DNA of 64,000 nt from NCBI GenBank assembly GCA_020279385.1, contig GCA_020279385.1_4762.2. One strand, given 5' to 3'. Of the stretch, positions 18,617 through 35,518 are shown piece by piece. Position 1 is the first letter of the stretch; each line of letters opens with the position of its first letter. Made by a program: the position numbers and the translations under genes. Under the pieces are notes generated by a model. It saw only the letters and a program-made list of their open reading frames with translations, had not been told where the DNA came from and did no database searches. Source of the stretch: a phage.

Positions 18617-19804
18617 ATGAGCGTATTTAACCGCGAACATGTTGATATTATGAACGAACCGATGTTTCTGGGTAGTGGGTTGGGTATCGCTCGCTATGAT
18701 ATTCAGCGTCATCAAGTATTTGAAGAACTGATCGAAAAGCAATTGTCATTTTTCTGGCGTCCCGAAGAGATTTCACTTGCAACCGACCGCATACAATATC
18801 TTAATATGGGTGACGTTGAAAAGCGTTTCTTTACCGAAAACTTGAAGTATCAGACATTACTTGATTCTATTCAAGGTCGCGCACCGTCCGCAGCATTTGG
18901 TCCAATTGTATCTGATCCAACTCTCGATACATGGTTGCAAACATGGACATTCAGCGAAACGATTCATAGCCGAAGCTATACACACATTATGCGTAACTGT
19001 TTCATTGATCCGGCTAGTGAGTTCGACCAGATCATCGATAACCCTGCTATCATGAAGCGAGCGGAATCTATCGGGAAATATTATGATGATGTTCTTTATT
19101 GGATTCGTAAGTATGAGAATGCAAAAGAAGATCTCCGCTATTGGGAAGAAGAAGTTCTCCACCACTATTGGGAAGAACGAGACGATCAGACAGAATTAGA
19201 TGATGCAAGAAGATTTTTTGAAGATACAAAACGAGATCTGATGGCTTCGATTTATCTGTGTGCACACTGCGTCAATGCACTGGAAGCAATCCGTTTTTAT
19301 GTGTCCTTTGCATGTACTTTCAGCTTTGCCGAACGTGGTTTACTGGAAGGTAACGCGAAGATCATGAAATTTATTGCGCGTGATGAACAACTTCATTTAA
19401 AAGGCACACAATACATTATTCGTCAATGGCAAACGGGGGGTGATGGTGATGAGTGGAAACAGATTGCGGAAGAACTTGAAGGCGAAGCAACGAAAATCTT
19501 TCTGGATGTTGTCGAGCAAGAAAAAGAATGGGTAGACCACCTATTCGCAATGGGGGCAATTCCTAACCTGTCACCGGAAATTCTGAAAACCTATGTAGAA
19601 TACCTGGCAGATTCCCGTATGCGTGCTGTCGGACTGAAAAGCCCGTTTAGTGTTCGTCGTCATCCGTTACCGTGGATGCGTAAGTGGTTAAACTCTGACG
19701 AAGTTCAAAACGCGGCGCAAGAAGTAGAGATTATGTATCTGGTGTCTCAGGTTAATACCGATTTAACAGACGATGACTACAACCGATTCGGTAAATATCT
19801 ATGA
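18617..19804 (+). CDS. nrdB: Ribonucleotide reductase small subunit
   Basis: 395 aa, position after nrdA; continuous frame. Confidence 0.9.
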   Translation: MSVFNREHVDIMNEPMFLGSGLGIARYDIQRHQVFEELIEKQLSFFWRPEEISLATDRIQYLNMGDVEKRFFTENLKYQTLLDSIQGRAPSAAFGPIVSDPTLDTWLQTWTFSETIHSRSYTHIMRNCFIDPASEFDQIIDNPAIMKRAESIGKYYDDVLYWIRKYENAKEDLRYWEEEVLHHYWEERDDQTELDDARRFFEDTKRDLMASIYLCAHCVNALEAIRFYVSFACTFSFAERGLLEGNAKIMKFIARDEQLHLKGTQYIIRQWQTGGDGDEWKQIAEELEGEATKIFLDVVEQEKEWVDHLFAMGAIPNLSPEILKTYVEYLADSRMRAVGLKSPFSVRRHPLPWMRKWLNSDEVQNAAQEVEIMYLVSQVNTDLTDDDYNRFGKYL

Positions 19805-20277
19805 TATATTTTGTCGATTTAGATTTTACGATCACAGATCCAACACATCGACTAGCAAAGATGCCAACCGAAAATCTTGATAAAGTCGAGTCATGGATCG
19901 AATATAACAAGGCATGTGGGGGAGATTCCCCCATTTACGATGTAATTCGTGTTATTAATGCTCTTTCCGACAACGGGCATTTGATTTACATCCTCACCGG
20001 ACGAAGTTCACATGCTTACATGGAAACAATTGATTGGTTAATTTCTAACGGGGTGTGTTTTGATAAAATCTTTATGAGAGGCCGTACCGATTCCCGTAAA
20101 GATTATCACATCAAATTAGAGGTAATTAAATCCTTTGATAAAGATGAAGTTGTCGGAGTCTTTGAGGATAACCCAGAAGTGATTAAAGTTTTGCGTGAAA
20201 ATGGTTATCGTGTCTTTGACGTAGGAAATCACAAAGATAAGACGCGAGCGGATATTGCAAATCACGGTCATGATTAA
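19801..20277 (+). CDS. HAD-superfamily phosphatase-like protein (putative nucleotidase)
   Basis: N-terminal VDLDFTIT (DxDxT-like), LTGRS, FEDNP. Confidence 0.5.
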   Translation: MIYFVDLDFTITDPTHRLAKMPTENLDKVESWIEYNKACGGDSPIYDVIRVINALSDNGHLIYILTGRSSHAYMETIDWLISNGVCFDKIFMRGRTDSRKDYHIKLEVIKSFDKDEVVGVFEDNPEVIKVLRENGYRVFDVGNHKDKTRADIANHGHD

Positions 20278-21403: not shown

Positions 21404-21865
21404 ATGATTAATGAGCTAATAGAAAACTATGGATTCGTTAAATATTCATGTTTAGAGTGTAAAGATGGTGATGTGATTCTACCGCCTCAGAAGAACCGTT
21501 TAAATGTTCTTTACGCTATTGTGGTTGATGATGAACTGGTATATATTGGTCAGACTGTTAATCTCAGAAAGCGGATCAATTATTACCGGACTAGCATTAA
21601 CAGACAGACACCAACGGCGGATACTCGCAAGAGTAAGAATATTCATAAGGCGCTAGAGGAAGGGAAGACAGTAACATTCTATTACCGCCAGTGCTTTGAG
21701 TTATATATTGAGAATCCAACGGGTAAAGATATTATAAGCACTGCCGATATCGAAGAACCTGTTTTGATCACCAAATTTAAACCAGAATGGAACACAAATT
21801 ATGTCAACAAAAGAAAACAACAAAAAAGTTTTAGCATTGTTCAAAAATCTGATGGCACTATGTGA
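21404..21865 (+). CDS. denA: Endonuclease II (GIY-YIG family)
   Basis: YAIVVDDELVYIGQTVNLRKRINYYRTSINR matches T4 DenA as recalled (YAIAINDELVYIGKTKNLRKRINYYRTAINR). Confidence 0.85.
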   Translation: MINELIENYGFVKYSCLECKDGDVILPPQKNRLNVLYAIVVDDELVYIGQTVNLRKRINYYRTSINRQTPTADTRKSKNIHKALEEGKTVTFYYRQCFELYIENPTGKDIISTADIEEPVLITKFKPEWNTNYVNKRKQQKSFSIVQKSDGTM

Positions 21866-22970
21866 CGGATCTGATACGTTCTATTACAAAGATGAAATTA
21901 CGGCGATGCAAACCCGTATGCGCATTTTTAGCTATCTGTACTTGAGCAAACCGGAAATGTGGAATAAACCAGATGCGTTAGAGTGTCGCGGGATCATGTT
22001 TGAAATTGACGATAAAGGTCGTCCGGTCCGCATCGCATCTCGTCCTATGGAGAAGTTTTTTAATTTGGGCGAGAATGATCGCGCTCGCTTTAAGCCGGAA
22101 GATGTGGAAATGGTCATGGACAAAATGGACGGTAGTCTAGTAAGCACATACATTGATAACGGCTATGTTCAGTTGAAGTCTAAAGCGGCCTTGTACTCAA
22201 GCCAGGCAGAGAGAGCAAACGGTCTTCTGTATTCAGAGAAGTATGCGGATCTACGCGCTAAGATTGCTGATATTGGGTCTGATTATACTTTCAACTTTGA
22301 ATATACAGCACCCAGCAACCGAATTGTTGTAGAATATTCTGAACCGTCGCTAACACTTCTGAATGTACGCCATAACGTCACAGGAGAGTACGTACCGCAT
22401 CAAATGCTATTTGCTGACGCAATCCTACGTCCTCATCTGGTAAATGCGTTACAGGTTGATTCAGCGCGTTTTAGCAATATTCTTGATGAAGTTAGGATCG
22501 CAGAAGGTATCGAAGGAATTGTTGCCCGCACTAAAGACGGTCAAATGTTCAAAGTGAAGAGTGAATGGTATATTGGTGTGCACAACATTAAAAACACATC
22601 GATGTTTCCTAATAACCTGATCTACTATGTCGTAGAAAGCGAAACCGATGATTTGCGTGCTGCATATGAAGGCGAACCGGAAGCAATGGAACGAATCGAG
22701 CTATTCGAGGAAGCATTCAGGTCTATTCTTCGCAATGCCTTCACGACAGCAACAGAATTTTATAACGCACACGCGGGAGAAGACAGAAAGACATATGCAT
22801 CAAATGCGACTATCGAATCACGTAAACACGGTGATGCACAAGCATATATTTTCATGTGTCTGATGATTGCATTTGATGGTCTTGATTATGACCGTATTAT
22901 GGATTCAATGAAAACTTACTATCTACGGAATTATAAGAAACTTATTCCGGCTGATAAGATTGATTGGTAA
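21801..22970 (+). CDS. rnlA: RNA ligase 1
   Basis: PDALECRGIMFEIDDKGRPVRIASRPMEKFFNL, FEYTAPSNRIV, NYKKLIP match T4 RnlA (gene 63) as recalled; start may lie later (long overlap with denA). Confidence 0.9.
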   Translation: MSTKENNKKVLALFKNLMALCDGSDTFYYKDEITAMQTRMRIFSYLYLSKPEMWNKPDALECRGIMFEIDDKGRPVRIASRPMEKFFNLGENDRARFKPEDVEMVMDKMDGSLVSTYIDNGYVQLKSKAALYSSQAERANGLLYSEKYADLRAKIADIGSDYTFNFEYTAPSNRIVVEYSEPSLTLLNVRHNVTGEYVPHQMLFADAILRPHLVNALQVDSARFSNILDEVRIAEGIEGIVARTKDGQMFKVKSEWYIGVHNIKNTSMFPNNLIYYVVESETDDLRAAYEGEPEAMERIELFEEAFRSILRNAFTTATEFYNAHAGEDRKTYASNATIESRKHGDAQAYIFMCLMIAFDGLDYDRIMDSMKTYYLRNYKKLIPADKIDW

Positions 22971-22974
22971 TAAT

Positions 22975-23000
22975 AAGCGGGGCTAGTTCCCCGCCTTTTG
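22975..23000 (+). terminator. Stem-loop after rnlA
   Basis: GCGGGGCTAGTTCCCCGCC hairpin followed by TTTTGTCG. Confidence 0.4.
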
Positions 23001-23014
23001 TCGTTGGGGGTAAT

Positions 23015-23338
23015 ATGTCAAAGCTGATATACATTGTTATCATATCTGTATTGCTGGGGGTGGGTGGCAATATGTGGTGGGAAAATAAAAAAGAGGTAGA
23101 TCGACTGAATCAGGAATTTACAGAATATAAGAAAAAGACAGATGAAAAGATGAAGGTCGTAGACTCACTACAAAAGGAGATGTACGGAATAAGAACTAAG
23201 TTTGCAGAAGAACAAAACAAAGCAATGAAAGACGCTACACGAGGCTATGTAGTAGCACAAAAACCCAAGTTGGTAGAGAAACAGCTTAATGATTCATTTA
23301 AGGAGTTTACCGAAGAATTAAAGGAGGCGACTAAATGA
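23015..23338 (+). CDS. Putative i-spanin (Rz-like; PseT.3-like)
   Basis: N-terminal TM helix LIYIVIISVLLGVGG then charged coiled-coil-like region; sits just upstream of pseT; start set at ATG 23015 after GGGGG RBS. Confidence 0.45.
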   Translation: MSKLIYIVIISVLLGVGGNMWWENKKEVDRLNQEFTEYKKKTDEKMKVVDSLQKEMYGIRTKFAEEQNKAMKDATRGYVVAQKPKLVEKQLNDSFKEFTEELKEATK

Positions 23339-23787
23339 GCATAGAAATATTGTCTACGCAAGAGCAGATAAACAATTTTAATCTTGTTGATTATCTGGGG
23401 ATAGGTGCAAGCATTATTATCCTGATGGTGTTTTCAATTTTCGTGATACACTGGATGTTTAAGAAAGCACATAAGAATTTTCAGACCGCCATAATCCATG
23501 TCTTCGCTGTGCCTATTGTATTTGCGCTTTCTTCGTGTACAATGGACCATTATTCACAGGAACCGAAATTACATCCTCCACTACCAGCACCAATAGAAAA
23601 AGTTGACATTGACCTGAAAGTGGATACAATAGACGGTAAACCTAGAGTTTCTATGTCGTGGGAGGACTCCCAAAAATTCAGAGTCTGGCTTGCGGATATT
23701 AAGAGATATACACTTGAAAGTAAGTTGATCATGTGTTATTATCGAAAAGAACTTAATGAGGAACGGTGCAAACCGAAGGAGAAATAA
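23335..23787 (+). CDS. Putative o-spanin lipoprotein (Rz1-like; PseT.2-like); alternative start near 23455
   Basis: Lipobox-like FALSSC after a hydrophobic stretch, then proline-rich PKLHPPLPAP; internal Met (MFKKAHKNF...) gives a canonical lipoprotein signal peptide. Confidence 0.4.
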   Translation: MSIEILSTQEQINNFNLVDYLGIGASIIILMVFSIFVIHWMFKKAHKNFQTAIIHVFAVPIVFALSSCTMDHYSQEPKLHPPLPAPIEKVDIDLKVDTIDGKPRVSMSWEDSQKFRVWLADIKRYTLESKLIMCYYRKELNEERCKPKEK

Positions 23788-24665
23788 TGCCGAAATGTGA
23801 AGTGATTTTAACCGTTGGTTGTTCTGGGTCCGGTAAAACTACATGGGCTATGGAAACATGTAAAAGGTTTAGTAATTATCGTAATGTGAATCGTGATGAC
23901 CTTCGTCTTATGTTGTTTGGTGTTGACTCACTTTTGAAATACAAATATACTAAGGAAAAGGAAAAGCTGGTAGAGTCTATTCAGAGAATGATTGCTCGCG
24001 AGACTCTATCACGCGGATTGAGTATCATTATCTCTGATACCAACCTGAAAGAAAAACATCGTGTATTCTACAAAGAACTTGCAAAAGAATTTAACGCGGT
24101 GTATACTGAACAAGTGTTCAATGAACCGTTTGAGACACTAAAGAAACGTAATTTCTATCGCGGCGAGAAAGCAATTCCACTTTCTCATTTGCGTAACCAA
24201 TTTTATCTGATGCAGGAATATATGGGTCAAGAAGTATACAAACCGAATACTATGCTGCCAAAGGCAGTGATCTTTGATATTGATGGAACATTAGCGGATA
24301 AGGGCGGTCGTCATCCGTTTGACTGGACAAAGGTCAAAGAAGATAAACCACGTCAGCAAGTGGTCGAAATGCTTAAACTGTATCGTGATAATGGTTATCG
24401 TATCATTACATGCTCAGGGCGTGAGGATGTTTGCGAAGAAGATACTCTGCAATGGTTGCGTGAACAGGGTATTGAACCTAGTGATCACTTTCAACGTGAA
24501 ACTAATGATCGTCGTCCTGATCATGAAGTGAAGAAAGAGATCTTCTTCTCTGAAATTGCACCGCGTTATCATGTTGTTTTGGCGGTAGATGACCGTGATC
24601 AAGTGGTTGACATGTACCGCGCAATTGGTGTAGAATGTTTTCAGGTTAACTACGGAGACTTTTAA
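23787..24665 (+). CDS. pseT: Polynucleotide kinase / 3'-phosphatase
   Basis: Walker A GCSGSGKTTW, HAD-like VIFDIDGTLA, C-terminal AIGVECFQVNYGDF match T4 Pnk as recalled. Confidence 0.9.
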   Translation: MPKCEVILTVGCSGSGKTTWAMETCKRFSNYRNVNRDDLRLMLFGVDSLLKYKYTKEKEKLVESIQRMIARETLSRGLSIIISDTNLKEKHRVFYKELAKEFNAVYTEQVFNEPFETLKKRNFYRGEKAIPLSHLRNQFYLMQEYMGQEVYKPNTMLPKAVIFDIDGTLADKGGRHPFDWTKVKEDKPRQQVVEMLKLYRDNGYRIITCSGREDVCEEDTLQWLREQGIEPSDHFQRETNDRRPDHEVKKEIFFSEIAPRYHVVLAVDDRDQVVDMYRAIGVECFQVNYGDF

Positions 24666-24868
24666 TGTTTACCGATAAACTCAAGCAATTAGGCGAAGCA
24701 CTTGCTAAACGTGGTTTTAATGTTGAAATTGAACCCGCACCAGTTAACCCGTTTAGCGATGAGCGTCGTAGTGTATATGTCATTATGAGCAATGGTCATG
24801 GCGTGAATACATTCAATGTAAAACAGTATAGCGACGGATCAGTAGAATACTTTCGCGTATACGGTTAA
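24665..24868 (+). CDS. Hypothetical protein (67 aa)
   Basis: ORF coupled to pseT stop. Confidence 0.45.
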   Translation: MFTDKLKQLGEALAKRGFNVEIEPAPVNPFSDERRSVYVIMSNGHGVNTFNVKQYSDGSVEYFRVYG

Positions 24869-24889
24869 TTAATATGTGAGGATTATATT

Positions 24890-25396
24890 ATGTTGTCACA
24901 AACTTACATGCAGATCGCCTATCTGATCGCAAAGAACTCTAAATGTGTTTCGTGGAAGGTAGGCGCACTGATCGAAAAAGACGGGCGAATCATTTCTACT
25001 GGATTTAACGGAACTCCAGCAGGGCAAGTAAATTGTAGCTGTCATGCACATAAAAACGGTTGGCTGGATGATGACGGCAAAATGATCCCAGAAAAACGAC
25101 CAGAGCATAGTGCATGGTCACAGAAAAACGAGATCCATGCTGAATTAAATGCTATTTTGTTTGCTGCCCGTAGCGGTGTATCGATTGAAGGCGCTAGTAT
25201 GTGGTGTACTGCTTCACCGTGTCCAGATTGCGCTAAAGCAATTGCAAACAGTGGTATTAAACATCTATACTATTGCGATACATACGACCGAAATGGTGGG
25301 CGTGATTGGGCTGATATTTTGGATAAAGCCGACATTACGGTTACGCGTATTCCAAAAGCATTATTGACTGATTTGAAGGGTATTGATAATGACTGA
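24890..25396 (+). CDS. cd: dCMP deaminase
   Basis: Cytidine/dCMP deaminase zinc motifs HAELNAI and PCPDC. Confidence 0.85.
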   Translation: MLSQTYMQIAYLIAKNSKCVSWKVGALIEKDGRIISTGFNGTPAGQVNCSCHAHKNGWLDDDGKMIPEKRPEHSAWSQKNEIHAELNAILFAARSGVSIEGASMWCTASPCPDCAKAIANSGIKHLYYCDTYDRNGGRDWADILDKADITVTRIPKALLTDLKGIDND

Positions 25397-25703
25397 ACAA
25401 ATTGATAATATCGCACTTCGTGAAGCACTAAAGAAAATGCTTGCTGTAGGTACTCACTCTTTACAGTTTACTAAGAAAGATGGTACTGTCCGTGAGATGT
25501 TCGCCACGCGAGATCCGGCACTGATGCCGTTTGAAACATACGAAAAGTGGTTAGTTCCTAATGTTGAAAAACCGCGTAAAGAATCAGAAACATCTTTGCC
25601 AGTATATGAAATTGCAGTTGAAGGTTTCCGTAGTTTTGGGCTTGATAGTCTGATTAATGTAGACGGGCTGACTCCAGCGCAGATCGTCGAAATTTATAAA
25701 TAA
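25383..25703 (+). CDS. Hypothetical protein (106 aa)
   Basis: ORF between cd and 31. Confidence 0.5.
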   Translation: MIMTEQIDNIALREALKKMLAVGTHSLQFTKKDGTVREMFATRDPALMPFETYEKWLVPNVEKPRKESETSLPVYEIAVEGFRSFGLDSLINVDGLTPAQIVEIYK

Positions 25704-33714: not shown

Positions 33715-33956
33715 AAAGAAAATTAATTAAACGCAATAAGGAATTTCTTAATAACTGCATTAAGGCCGCTAATGGTTGGCCTTTGTTCCTCTTCCTTTAT
33801 GATTGGTATTCTAAACAATCGGTAGAGGAAACACGACACTATAAGAAGATCAGAAAAGAATCATATACAAAACAAGGCCGCATTAACGGACTTTACTTAA
33901 TGTGGCACGGCAAAGAACCTTCTAAAATCTGTGTTGGATTAAAGGGGCGTATATGA
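33711..33956 (+). CDS. Hypothetical protein (81 aa)
   Basis: GTG start overlapping upstream stop (GTGA); basic N-terminus, hydrophobic WPLFLFLYDWY segment. Confidence 0.4.
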   Translation: MKRKLIKRNKEFLNNCIKAANGWPLFLFLYDWYSKQSVEETRHYKKIRKESYTKQGRINGLYLMWHGKEPSKICVGLKGRI

Positions 33957-34669
33957 AACAAAAATTAATATTCTGCAACTTTGACGGATCGGGGATAATG
34001 GGGCTAGAATGGGCTAAAGCAGGTCATAAGGTGATCTGCTTTAATGCTGACGATGGCGACCACGGCACATACAAAAAGTATAATACCCGATTTGAACATC
34101 CAAACATTACCTATGTAAACACATGGATTGATTTGAACTGGCTGGAAAGAGCAATGGACCTTGAATGGGGGAAACCGGATATTATCTTTGCATTCCCACC
34201 GTGCACCAATTTAGCTGTTAGTGGCGCTGCACACTTTGAACGAAAGAAACGAGAACAAGGACCATTGATTCAAGTTCATGATGTAAGGGCAGCTAAAATA
34301 ACCGCTTATTTGGGTGAATGGCTAGGAGTTCCCTACATGATAGAGAATCCTGTAAGCGTTATCTCTAGCATGTGGCGTAAGCCTGATTATATGTTCCATC
34401 CGTGGGAATATGGTGGTTATTTGCCGGAAGATGATAAGCATCCTACGTTTCCTGAGTATATTGCCGCCCGTGATATGTACCCGAAAAAGACTTGCTTATG
34501 GACCGGACAAGGCTTTATGATGCCAGAAAAGAAACCTTTGCAGATTAATAAAGGGTACAGTAAACAGCATTCTAAGCTAGGCGGGAAAGGAACGAAAACA
34601 AAGACTATAAGGTCACTTACCCCGCGAGGATTCGCAAAGGCAGTATTTGAAGCCAATAAGGATCTATGA
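33953..34669 (+). CDS. Cytosine-C5 methyltransferase-like protein (divergent, no obvious target-recognition domain)
   Basis: FCNFDGSGIMG (motif I-like), FAFPPCTNLAVSGA (motif IV-like Pro-Cys), YMIENPVSV (motif VI ENV-like); 238 aa; ATGA overlap with neighbours. Confidence 0.5.
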   Translation: MKQKLIFCNFDGSGIMGLEWAKAGHKVICFNADDGDHGTYKKYNTRFEHPNITYVNTWIDLNWLERAMDLEWGKPDIIFAFPPCTNLAVSGAAHFERKKREQGPLIQVHDVRAAKITAYLGEWLGVPYMIENPVSVISSMWRKPDYMFHPWEYGGYLPEDDKHPTFPEYIAARDMYPKKTCLWTGQGFMMPEKKPLQINKGYSKQHSKLGGKGTKTKTIRSLTPRGFAKAVFEANKDL

Positions 34670-34998
34670 TGAGATTGTTTAAGTATTCGCTAACGTCAAA
34701 TTACGATAAACAAGGTCATTGCATCCGTTGCCCTGATTGTCATAGCCATAACATCGAAAGCAAGATCACCGATCATATTGATGGACTTTGGTCGCCAGCA
34801 AGTGAAATAGAATACTATTGCTCTGATTGTGGAATTGTAGTAGCATATTGGGCATACGGATCATATGATCCATACTTCCAGATGGGAGAGCGTTCAATCC
34901 CTGCGCTCATCTGGAGAATTAAGAACAATATCCGCCATTCATGGGATGAGTTCTTAAAAGATATTGATTTACGTGATGATCCATTCAGGAGACTATAA
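34666..34998 (+). CDS. Zinc-ribbon protein (110 aa)
   Basis: CIRCPDC ... CSDCG (CxxC-x29-CxxC); coupled to flanking genes. Confidence 0.5.
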   Translation: MMRLFKYSLTSNYDKQGHCIRCPDCHSHNIESKITDHIDGLWSPASEIEYYCSDCGIVVAYWAYGSYDPYFQMGERSIPALIWRIKNNIRHSWDEFLKDIDLRDDPFRRL

Positions 34999-34999
34999 C

Positions 35000-35518
35000 A
35001 TGAACCGTTTAACGCCTAAACGCCGCTACTATACCAATACTAAAAACTTTGTTATCTCTGTTTACGAAGCATGGTTAGAAGATGGCTATATCAACATGAA
35101 CCCAGATTATCAGCGTCCTTTAGTATGGGACACCGAAAACAAACGTATGTTTATTGAAAACCTGATTAATGATTTTCCGGTTGGTGCTATCGCAATGGCT
35201 AAGATTGATGATGGCTCTCGCTATGAGATCGAAATCGTGGACGGTAAACAGCGTTTAAACGCAATATTCTCCTTTATGAAGGATGAGTTTAGCATTGCCG
35301 GTAATGATGATTCTATGTTGTATTACAGTGATTTTACGCCAGCAGAAAAGCGACGTTTCCGAAATCTCGGACTACCCGCGATCATGATGGAAGAGAGCAC
35401 ACGAGAAGACCGATTAGAGTATTTCTACAAAACAAACTTTTTCGGTGTGCCTCAATCGGAAGAACATCGCCAGCATGTGATTGCCCTATTGCAAGATGAG
35501 CAATTAAAAAATAACTAA
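35000..35518 (+). CDS. DUF262 (ParB/GmrS N-terminal-like) domain protein
   Basis: DYQRPLVWDTENKRMFIENLINDFPVGAI...IVDGKQRLNAI matches the DUF262 signature (DxQR...W...DGQQR); ATG after CAGGAGA. Confidence 0.6.
   Translation: MNRLTPKRRYYTNTKNFVISVYEAWLEDGYINMNPDYQRPLVWDTENKRMFIENLINDFPVGAIAMAKIDDGSRYEIEIVDGKQRLNAIFSFMKDEFSIAGNDDSMLYYSDFTPAEKRRFRNLGLPAIMMEESTREDRLEYFYKTNFFGVPQSEEHRQHVIALLQDEQLKNN

Follow-up and report, generated by a model that had tools for sequence, protein, structure and literature searches.

Which genes lie between rnlA and pseT in a T4-like phage that has no alc at this place, and what does the gap say about the cytosines of its DNA? The stretch of 64,000 nucleotides analysed here (the window) comes from a Krischvirus, an RB49-like relative of T4. 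From rnlA to cd, its identity amounts to 99.3% with phage Skers and 98.3% with RB49. The T4 gene order is denA-rnlA-alc-pseT.3-pseT.2-pseT.1-pseT, and an earlier note on this DNA had correctly placed alc between rnlA and the pseT-linked ORFs. Both flanking genes are readily recognized. RnlA is 43% identical to its T4 homolog (tblastn E 6.9e-91) and its RB49 counterpart is named rnlA in RefSeq. PseT is 44% identical to T4 PseT (E 9.6e-68) and has the same length in RB49. As the earlier note had stated, only two ORFs with homologs or coding signatures are found in between (22964/23015-23338 and 23335-23787). T4 PseT.1 has no homolog in the window, RB49 or Skers (tblastn), and gp56, denA, dam and cd are all present. 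The two ORFs correspond to the genes labelled pseT.3 and pseT.2, "Rz-like spanin", in the RB49 RefSeq record. We consider it very probable that the locus is the standard separated two-component spanin cassette (pseT.3/pseT.2) of RB49-type Krischvirus, and that alc is missing together with the whole hydroxymethylcytosine (hmC) system.

Table 1. Features of the rnlA-pseT region and the methyltransferase-like gene; positions are those of the window.
Feature	Positions	Strand	Evidence
rnlA (RNA ligase 1, gp63)	21801..22970	+	phrog_562, 4.8e-124; upstream neighbour of the spanin pair
Terminator-like G+C hairpin, GCGGGGCTAGTTCCCCGC then CTTTTG (predicted)	22977..22994	+	consensus match only
pseT.3, i-spanin, 107 aa	23015..23338	+	phrog_739 Rz-like spanin, 7.8e-27 over residues 2-107
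pseT.2, o-spanin precursor, 150 aa	23335..23787	+	phrog_812 Rz-like spanin, 1.5e-32, residues 53-150 only
Clade-specific extension, residues 1-40	23335..23454	+	conservation, pN/pS, absence elsewhere in the family
Lipoprotein signal segment, residues 41-67	23455..23535	+	hydropathy, charge and lipobox analysis
Mature o-spanin, Cys68-Lys150, 83 aa	23536..23784	+	alignment with T4 PseT.2
pseT (polynucleotide kinase/phosphatase)	23787..24665	+	phrog_505, 5.3e-115; downstream neighbour
C5-cytosine-methyltransferase-like gene, 238 aa (RB49p189 homolog)	33953..34669	+	phrog_757 "DNA methyltransferase", 2.1e-90

The product of pseT.3 is 35% identical to T4 PseT.3 (tblastn E 6.6e-10). It contains a single hydrophobic stretch, its transmembrane domain (TMD), at residues 4-22 (23024-23080, mean Kyte-Doolittle value 1.86), and no cysteine. 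From about residue 25, the heptad a/d positions read V-L-F-Y-T-K-V-L-M-I, a pattern equalled in 15 of 2000 shuffles. PseT.3 is a predicted type II inner-membrane protein whose periplasmic domain is helical and prone to form a coiled coil. The supplement of Kongari 2018 (PMC6139136) describes the i-spanins of RB49 and JSE as 107-residue proteins with a coiled coil at 25-56, and window PseT.3 does not differ from the JSE sequence given in that supplement. The earlier note was right in describing a spanin-like type II protein with a coiled coil, but it started the ORF at 22964, whereas the true start is ATG 23015. Position 22964 is the TTG at which the longest ORF mechanically begins, and this ORF reads across the rnlA stop and the terminator-like hairpin. 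The ATG start agrees with the Skers GenBank CDS ("putative i-spanin", same extent), with 107-aa gene calls in four diverged relatives and with the JSE and Phi1 sequences as curated in Kongari 2018. A practical point is that in the RB49 and JSE RefSeq records pseT.3 starts at an internal Met (88 aa), so that the TMD is lost. This is an annotation error, not biology.

The product of pseT.2 is 48% identical to T4 PseT.2 (tblastn E 6.2e-19), and the Skers CDS is annotated "putative o-spanin". The two spanin genes are adjacent, in a "separated" architecture: the pseT.2 ATG, with AAGGAGG 7 nt upstream, overlaps the pseT.3 stop (ATGA, 23335-23338). At the other end, the pseT ATG overlaps the o-spanin stop (TAATG). 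Pfam searches with both spanins returned only sub-threshold noise (Terpene_synth, DUF2569) and no spanin-family match; PF26831 (Phage_T4_Spanin) is carried by close relatives in precomputed tables. The lipoprotein signal is made of a positive loop, MFKKAHKNF, followed by the h-region AIIHVFAVPIVF, the lipobox ALSS and Cys68. AF2 predicts a helix at residues 47-67, and L65 and C68 are invariant. Cys68 is followed by Thr(+2)-Met; thus the +2 residue is not Asp. The mature protein contains a proline-rich linker, EPKLHPPLPAP, a beta hairpin and a C-terminal helix (AF2 strands 94-99 and 102-107, helix 109-144). The lipobox and the proline-rich stretch had both been seen in the earlier note. Cys134 and Cys145 align with Cys87 and Cys98 of T4 PseT.2, which are essential (PMC6139136). 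C134 shows no variation in conservation set A1, where C145 is conserved to at least 90%, and both are invariant in set A2. Membrane topology of the two ORFs was tested: a TMD was found in one and a lipobox signal in the other.

The pair shares its setting with T4 PseT.3/PseT.2, downstream of rnlA and upstream of pseT with a 4-nt ATGA overlap. The T4 proteins are said to have been described by Summer in 2007 as a two-component spanin of separated architecture. Like window PseT.3, T4 PseT.3 lacks Cys and has a TMD at its N-terminus followed by a helical domain in the periplasm, but the window protein is 10 residues shorter. Similarly, the two PseT.2 proteins share the lipobox, the proline-rich linker, a domain of beta structure plus helix, and a pair of cysteines 11 residues apart, but the window precursor begins with 40 extra residues that contain an additional TM helix. 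The window locus also differs from that of T4 by the lack of pseT.1 after the pair and of alc before it. With the pseT.3/pseT.2 pairs of RB49, JSE, Phi1 and Skers (98-99% DNA identity, 107 + 150 aa, same neighbours), there is no substantive difference beyond the RB49 and JSE RefSeq start calls. As in lambda Rz/Rz1, an inner-membrane type II protein would be joined across the periplasm to an outer-membrane lipoprotein. However, no sequence similarity with the lambda proteins is observed, the cysteine arrangement differs, and Rz1 is embedded within Rz whereas the window genes are separate.

By analogy, the pair probably functions like the T4 spanins, which complement lambda Rz/Rz1 amber mutants (PMC6139136). 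The Kongari 2018 supplement (PMC6139136) places RB49, JSE and Phi1 in the T4 families of i- and o-spanins and classes their genes as "sep", with an overlap of -4. PseT.3 would be anchored in the inner membrane by its N-terminal helix, its helical, coiled-coil-prone domain reaching into the periplasm. PseT.2 would be exported, lipidated at Cys68, cut by signal peptidase II and sorted to the outer membrane because its +2 residue is Thr and not Asp. The C-terminal regions of the two proteins would bind across the periplasm. Once the holin and the endolysin have removed the peptidoglycan, the spanin complex would disrupt the outer membrane, the last step of lysis. No T4-type late promoter (TATAAATA) was found ahead of the spanin genes on the + strand between 7268 and 25695; transcription of the pair thus appears to be of the early type, as in T4.

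The place filled by alc in T4 is here a 44-nt gap between rnlA and pseT.3 containing only the hairpin. T4 Alc (PF17527), a transcription terminator on cytosine-containing DNA, shares only its genomic address with this gap. A tblastn search with T4 Alc found no homolog in the window and the complete RB49 genome (best E 0.38) or in Skers (best E 0.24). An Alc too diverged for tblastn was rejected, as a profile built from 17 homologs, down to 49% identity, was also negative on six-frame translations (hmmsearch --max, best E 0.71; T4 positive control 4e-88). In the window, RB49 and Skers, tblastn with gp42 matched only the td paralog (E 2.6e-4), and the alpha- and beta-glucosyltransferases (a-gt, b-gt) gave E > 0.2. 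The search for alc, gene 42 and glucosyltransferases suggested in the earlier note therefore finds all of them absent from the three sequences, and the claim that no alc lies between rnlA and pseT holds. Genome-wide absence of alc in this phage rests on the 64 kb window, the two closest complete genomes (RB49 and Skers) and genus-level literature. According to Petrov 2010 (PMC2993671, Table 4), alc has the same distribution as gene 42 and RB49-type phages are excluded from it. In a 2025 review, hmC, denB, ndd and alc are all given as missing from Krischvirus (PMC12115623, Table 4). The absence of alc is an ordinary, published trait of Krischvirus. The probable explanation is that the entire hmC system (gene 42, glucosyltransferases, denB, alc) is missing from this lineage, whose DNA is replicated with cytosine; with Alc, the phage would shut off transcription from its own template.

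The earlier note had also pointed to a C5-methyltransferase-like gene at 33953 and asked which cytosine modification this phage uses. At the level of motifs, the resemblance is real. FxGSG, PPC and ENPV motifs (F10-x-G12-S13-G14, P82-P83-C84 and E131-N132-P133-V134, motifs I, IV and VI) are invariant in 25 homologs. The AF2 model (pLDDT 87.6) finds DNMT1, MET1, the CP-933R MTase (3g7u) and DNMT2 as best Foldseek matches, all weak (E ~1e-4, TM 0.42-0.47). The protein has no Pfam match at E <= 0.01 and no match in a PDB sequence search; a few of its 7309 homologs carry PF00145. It is short (238 aa), with no obvious target-recognition domain. As for the question itself, the published default answer is that there is no modification: the Krischvirus TB34 contains only canonical nucleosides by HPLC/MS (PMC13390438). 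We infer that the cytosine of the present phage is unmodified.

Both parts of the preferred explanation have a competitor. The two ORFs could encode membrane proteins that serve a different purpose, for example superinfection exclusion or lysis inhibition, as suggested by their location beside pseT, distant from holin t and endolysin. However, the T4 pair occupies the same non-cassette position and its spanin function was shown by deletion and complementation (PMC6139136). With significant homology to that pair (tblastn, PHROG) and every hallmark of the family present, another role is extremely improbable, and the reading of the earlier note, a spanin-like pair upstream of pseT, stands. Somewhat less remote, though still very unlikely, is that the lineage modifies its cytosines by a route not involving gp42 and glucosyltransferases, possibly via the 33953 gene; absence of alc would then not imply plain cytosine. 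This idea draws on the conserved C5-MTase-like gene and on the Krischvirus SAP: 5-hmdC and alpha-gentiobiosyl-mdC are reported in its DNA, which BrxU cuts, although no pathway genes were found (PMC13390438). Yet TB34, with its canonical nucleosides, is 99.96% identical to SAP, whose profile groups with those of seven Tequatrovirus phages from the same collection (PMC13390438). From this grouping, a mix-up of the SAP stock seems the simpler explanation. Also against modification, gp42, a-gt and b-gt homologs were not found in the window, RB49 and Skers, and RB49-type phages, which lack denB and alc, transduce plasmids (PMC12115623). Furthermore, T4 relatives without this gene network are reportedly cut by type II restriction enzymes to which modified T4 DNA is resistant (PMC2993671). 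Given SAP, unmodified cytosine is not proven for every member of Krischvirus. SAP is one unexplained published exception and merits independent re-testing.

The o-spanin gene raises a further question. It carries a lipoprotein signal, whose lipobox the earlier note had seen, but it is not a plain lipoprotein gene, as an extra N-terminal transmembrane segment precedes the signal. The extension is composed of an acidic tail (0 positive and 3 negative charges) and of TM helix 1 (residues 21-40); AF2 predicts a helix at residues 17-44. It is conserved in relatives down to 61% identity. A PHROG search with residues 1-67 of the precursor and with the same region in two diverged relatives gave a best E of 0.07; without a PHROG match, the extension has no recognisable relatives. 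The functional o-spanin might instead start at codon 41 (ATG 23455) and be a 110-aa prolipoprotein, the 40 upstream codons being untranslated or giving a minor long isoform (dual start). From Met41, the sequence is indeed a textbook lipoprotein signal, MFKKAHKNF-h-region-ALSS|C, and the family profile covers residues 53-150 only. Among 107 family representatives, the extension is restricted to one clade with two listed entries; all others open directly with the signal peptide. The curators of Kongari 2018 (PMC6139136) also doubted the long form for its "too long signal sequence", the sole earlier flag. The nucleotide data argue the other way. In all six lineages, a conserved AAGGAGG/AAGGAGA stands 7 nt before ATG 23335, and this ATG is coupled (ATGA) to the stop of pseT.3, whereas no Shine-Dalgarno sequence is found ahead of codon 41. 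This codon reads ATG in four sequences (the window, RB49, P0004 and P0005), TTG in JSE, but ATT or ATA in P0007 and P0008. Moreover, the extension is open in frame, its specific residues F15, N16, L17, G22 and G24 are conserved, and it is under purifying selection (pS 0.58-0.81 against pN 0.23-0.46, dN/dS 0.2-0.35). An internal start is disfavoured and we regard it as unlikely. What was called a "too long signal sequence" is most probably genuine and under selection rather than an error in the choice of start codon.

The spanin nature of both genes was already known: they are catalogued as spanins in GenBank, RefSeq and the 2018 spanin census. The interpretation of the earlier note is supported as correct, and it adds nothing new. 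It illustrates that a reader of raw sequence can spot a spanin pair and a missing gene, both facts being already in databases and reviews. One small oddity is left, the 40-residue extension. A possible, though rather doubtful, idea is that the Krischvirus o-spanin is a "pre-pro-lipoprotein", one ORF giving two products. The precursor would have its N-terminus out, its positive loop in the cytoplasm and Cys68 in the periplasm, a putative route of export and processing. Cleavage by signal peptidase II would then leave an outer-membrane o-spanin of 83 aa and, in the inner membrane, a conserved peptide of 67 aa with two helices. Alternatively, the extension may be a long leader that is then degraded. 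The extension offers a cheap experimental target to researchers interested in lipoprotein export or spanin regulation. If the two-product idea is true, the 67-aa peptide may have its own role, for example in delaying spanin maturation or otherwise tuning lysis.

Sequence comparison identifies this phage as a Krischvirus, a genus of RB49-like, "pseudo-T-even" phages. Over region 21800-25400, identity to Escherichia phage vB_EcoM_Skers is 99.3%; for the remaining Krischvirus members listed, among them RB49, kaaroe, W115 and ECD7, the values are 97.7-98.3%. Of the 60 records matching this region, 59 reach at least 95% identity. The window and RB49 have in common the order nrdA, nrdB, small HAD phosphatase ORF, denA, rnlA, pseT.3, pseT.2, pseT, which continues with cd.2, cd, 31.1, 31, 30.3 and 30. 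The HAD ORF (PF25109, 2.9e-13) is additional to the full-length pseT kinase-phosphatase. In the Skers record (MW748999, 12717-15222, outside the window), the large terminase gene is found almost directly after the baseplate wedge genes. With about 10 kb less sequence than RB49, this record apparently lacks genes 9-16, which could reflect a deletion or an assembly gap.

Features of the window around the spanin pair and the methyltransferase-like gene
Feature	Coordinates	Length	Remarks
HAD ORF	19801-20277		stand-alone PNKP-type phosphatase domain, between nrdB and denA
denA	21404-21865		endonuclease II, acts on cytosine DNA
rnlA	21801-22970		upstream neighbour of the spanin pair
Terminator-like hairpin	22977-22994		G+C-rich, followed by CTTTTG; inside the 44-nt rnlA-pseT.3 gap
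pseT.3 (i-spanin)	start 23015	107 aa	22964 is the mechanical TTG start of the ORF listing
pseT.2 (o-spanin precursor)	23335-23787	150 aa	ATG overlaps the pseT.3 stop (ATGA)
pseT	23787-24665		starts with ATG; downstream neighbour of the spanin pair
C5-MTase-like gene	33953-34669	238 aa	homolog of RB49p189 and SKERS_54
Zinc-ribbon ORF	34666-34998		directly 3' of the C5-MTase-like gene
DUF262 ORF	within 34666-35518	173-184 aa	GmrSD N-terminal domain only (PF03235, 4.2e-20)

The ORF listing contains only two coding ORFs between rnlA and pseT, as stated in an earlier note made from the sequence alone, which described them as a spanin-like pair. The first of these ORFs stands, but its proposed start does not. 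Initiation at TTG 22964 would run through the rnlA stop and the terminator-like hairpin, and the real start is the ATG at 23015. The resulting extent agrees with the Skers annotation and with gene calls in four diverged metagenomic relatives, and was also curated for JSE and Phi1 (Kongari et al. 2018, PMC6139136). The RefSeq entries of RB49 (NC_005066, 129055-129321) and JSE (NC_012740, 132795-133061) give pseT.3 as 88 residues from the internal Met20 (window 23072), a start that deletes the transmembrane domain. Judged on sequence, the 107-residue form fits an i-spanin and the 88-residue call does not. Its product has a single hydrophobic segment (residues 4-22), no cysteine and, from about residue 25, a heptad a/d pattern that only 15 of 2000 shuffles reach. 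pseT.2 is preceded by AAGGAGG, 7 nt 5' of its ATG. Its product contains the lipobox ALSS-C68 with Thr at +2, the proline-rich linker EPKLHPPLPAP and two further cysteines, 134 and 145. Both ORFs therefore deserve the i-spanin-like and o-spanin-like descriptions that they had received.

The two products match "Rz-like spanin" families of PHROGs (PseT.3, phrog_739, 7.8e-27; PseT.2, phrog_812, 1.5e-32). By tblastn, T4 PseT.3 is 35% identical to the i-spanin of the window (E 6.6e-10) and T4 PseT.2 48% identical to its o-spanin (E 6.2e-19). The genes are already annotated as pseT.3 / pseT.2 "Rz-like spanin" in RB49 RefSeq and as putative i- and o-spanin in Skers, and in the census of Kongari et al. 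the T4 families of i-spanins and o-spanins have RB49, JSE and Phi1 among their members (PMC6139136). The two T4 genes can replace lambda Rz/Rz1 in amber mutants, and Cys87 and Cys98 of T4 PseT.2 are both essential (PMC6139136). These two residues align with Cys134 and Cys145 of the window o-spanin. Both are invariant among close relatives; when T4 is included, Cys134 remains invariant and Cys145 is at least 90% conserved. When the precursor is modelled with AlphaFold (pLDDT 67), a disordered linker precedes a beta hairpin (94-107) and a long helix (109-144), as has been described for T4 PseT.2 (PMC6139136). At the sequence level, the pair carries every hallmark of the T4 spanin family.

The earlier note correctly places alc of T4 between rnlA and the pseT-linked ORFs; the T4 order is denA, rnlA, alc, pseT.3, pseT.2, pseT.1, pseT. 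Whereas T4 has alc between rnlA and pseT.3, the same place in the window holds only 44 nt with the hairpin, and all diverged relatives examined have the 107-aa i-spanin directly after rnlA. For tblastn (word size 2, no masking), the T4 products Alc, gp42, a-gt, b-gt, gp56, dam and PseT.1 were translated as queries, together with controls, and compared with the window, the RB49 genome in full and nearly all of Skers, the 2-kb remainder of which is covered by the window. Controls were recovered (rnlA, pseT, denA, cd, gp56 and dam, E ~1e-41 to 1e-91). In the same three targets, Alc gave no match better than E 0.24-0.38, gp42 matched thymidylate synthase only, and a-gt, b-gt and PseT.1 were not found. 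An Alc profile was built from 17 homologs, the most distant at 49% identity, and applied to every six-frame piece with hmmsearch --max; it recovered the T4 Alc control at 4e-88 and nothing else better than E 0.71. No alc, gene 42 or glucosyltransferase gene was found in these three targets, and the absence of alc between rnlA and pseT holds. The lineage retains gp56, a dCTPase/dUTPase 49% identical to that of T4 (RB49 L003 9490-10008), as well as denA. The retention of these two without gene 42, denB and alc is noted in the literature, without mechanistic explanation there.

The absence of alc is an already published, genus-level trait. alc and denB have "the same distribution as gene 42", with RB49-type phages outside the list (Petrov et al. 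2010, PMC2993671). In T4 relatives without this gene network, dCMP is probably unmodified, since type II enzymes cut some of their DNAs (PMC2993671). In a 2025 survey, Krischvirus is scored as having dCTPase and denA but not hmC, denB, ndd or alc (PMC12115623, Table 4). Direct nucleoside measurement in a 2026 study found only canonical bases in Krischvirus TB34; phage SAP, 99.96% identical to TB34, had 5-hmdC and gentiobiosyl-mdC but no genes that could be identified as their pathway (PMC13390438). The authors themselves term the SAP modification unexplained, and it may be a real puzzle. A stock mix-up would be the simpler explanation, because the SAP profile falls into one group with seven Tequatrovirus phages that belong to the same collection (PMC13390438).

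The gene at 33953 was also cited in the earlier note as C5-MTase-like. Its product matches phrog_757 "DNA methyltransferase" (2e-90) and belongs to a very large family of ca 230-residue phage proteins with 7309 matches in phage and metagenome data, a few of them with PF00145. The PF00145 model gave no match to the product itself in a Pfam search at E <= 0.01, and no obvious target-recognition domain is seen in it. The FxGSG, PPC and ENPV motifs are invariant in 25 homologs. The confidently predicted structure (pLDDT 87.6) best matches DNMT1, MET1, the CP-933R prophage methyltransferase and DNMT2 in the PDB, although weakly (E ~1e-4, TM 0.42-0.47). "C5-MTase-like" is a fair label for the product. 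We found nothing linking this gene to bulk cytosine replacement. The nearby phage-encoded DUF262-only ORF corresponds to half of a type IV restriction enzyme fold.

Overall, the observation and interpretation of the earlier note are correct, apart from where the first gene starts; the genes were already annotated, and the absence of alc was published for the genus. The o-spanin precursor also has an N-terminal extension (residues 1-40). The phrog_812 profile covers only residues 53-150 of the 150. The extension is composed of an acidic tail (no positive, 3 negative charges) and a strongly hydrophobic helix (21-40), followed by a positive loop, MFKKAHKNF (3 positive, no negative charges), and the lipoprotein signal. 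AlphaFold predicts two helices, 17-44 and 47-67. The extension is retained in relatives down to 61% identity, with F15, N16, L17, G22 and G24 nearly invariant. In all six lineages examined, the upstream ATG, Shine-Dalgarno and ATGA coupling are conserved and nothing resembling a Shine-Dalgarno precedes codon 41. This codon is ATG in the window, RB49 and the relatives P0004 and P0005, TTG in JSE, and ATT and ATA in the relatives P0007 and P0008. Within the extension, pS is near saturation (0.58-0.81) whereas pN is much lower (0.23-0.46), and stops are abundant in both other frames. Where computable, dN/dS is 0.2-0.35 for the extension and 0.06-0.18 for the mature domain, a constraint weaker than on the mature domain yet clearly of coding type. 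These data indicate that the extension is real, translated and under purifying selection.

When 1.84 billion representative proteins were searched exhaustively with a profile, 107 family members were found. Only the clade's own entries, P0004 (its representative) and P0009 (a truncated fragment), align to the extension. In all the others the profile match is confined to position 48 onward, and nearly all of these proteins have 70-132 residues; one outlier of 1832 residues matches a short stretch. A 98-residue relative, 54% identical to the o-spanin, lacks the extension and adjoins the same 107-residue i-spanin, so that the spanin itself does not require the extension. Neither PHROGs nor Pfam has a match to the extension, and the only earlier mention of it is as a "too long signal sequence" (PMC6139136, supplement). 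The precursor would insert with its N-terminus outside; with the positive loop kept in the cytoplasm, Cys68 would come to lie at the periplasmic face, where it would be lipidated. Cleavage by signal peptidase II would then free the mature 83-residue o-spanin, and a 67-residue two-helix peptide may stay in the inner membrane. This additional membrane segment, conserved in the o-spanin precursor, is a minor curiosity accessible to experiment.
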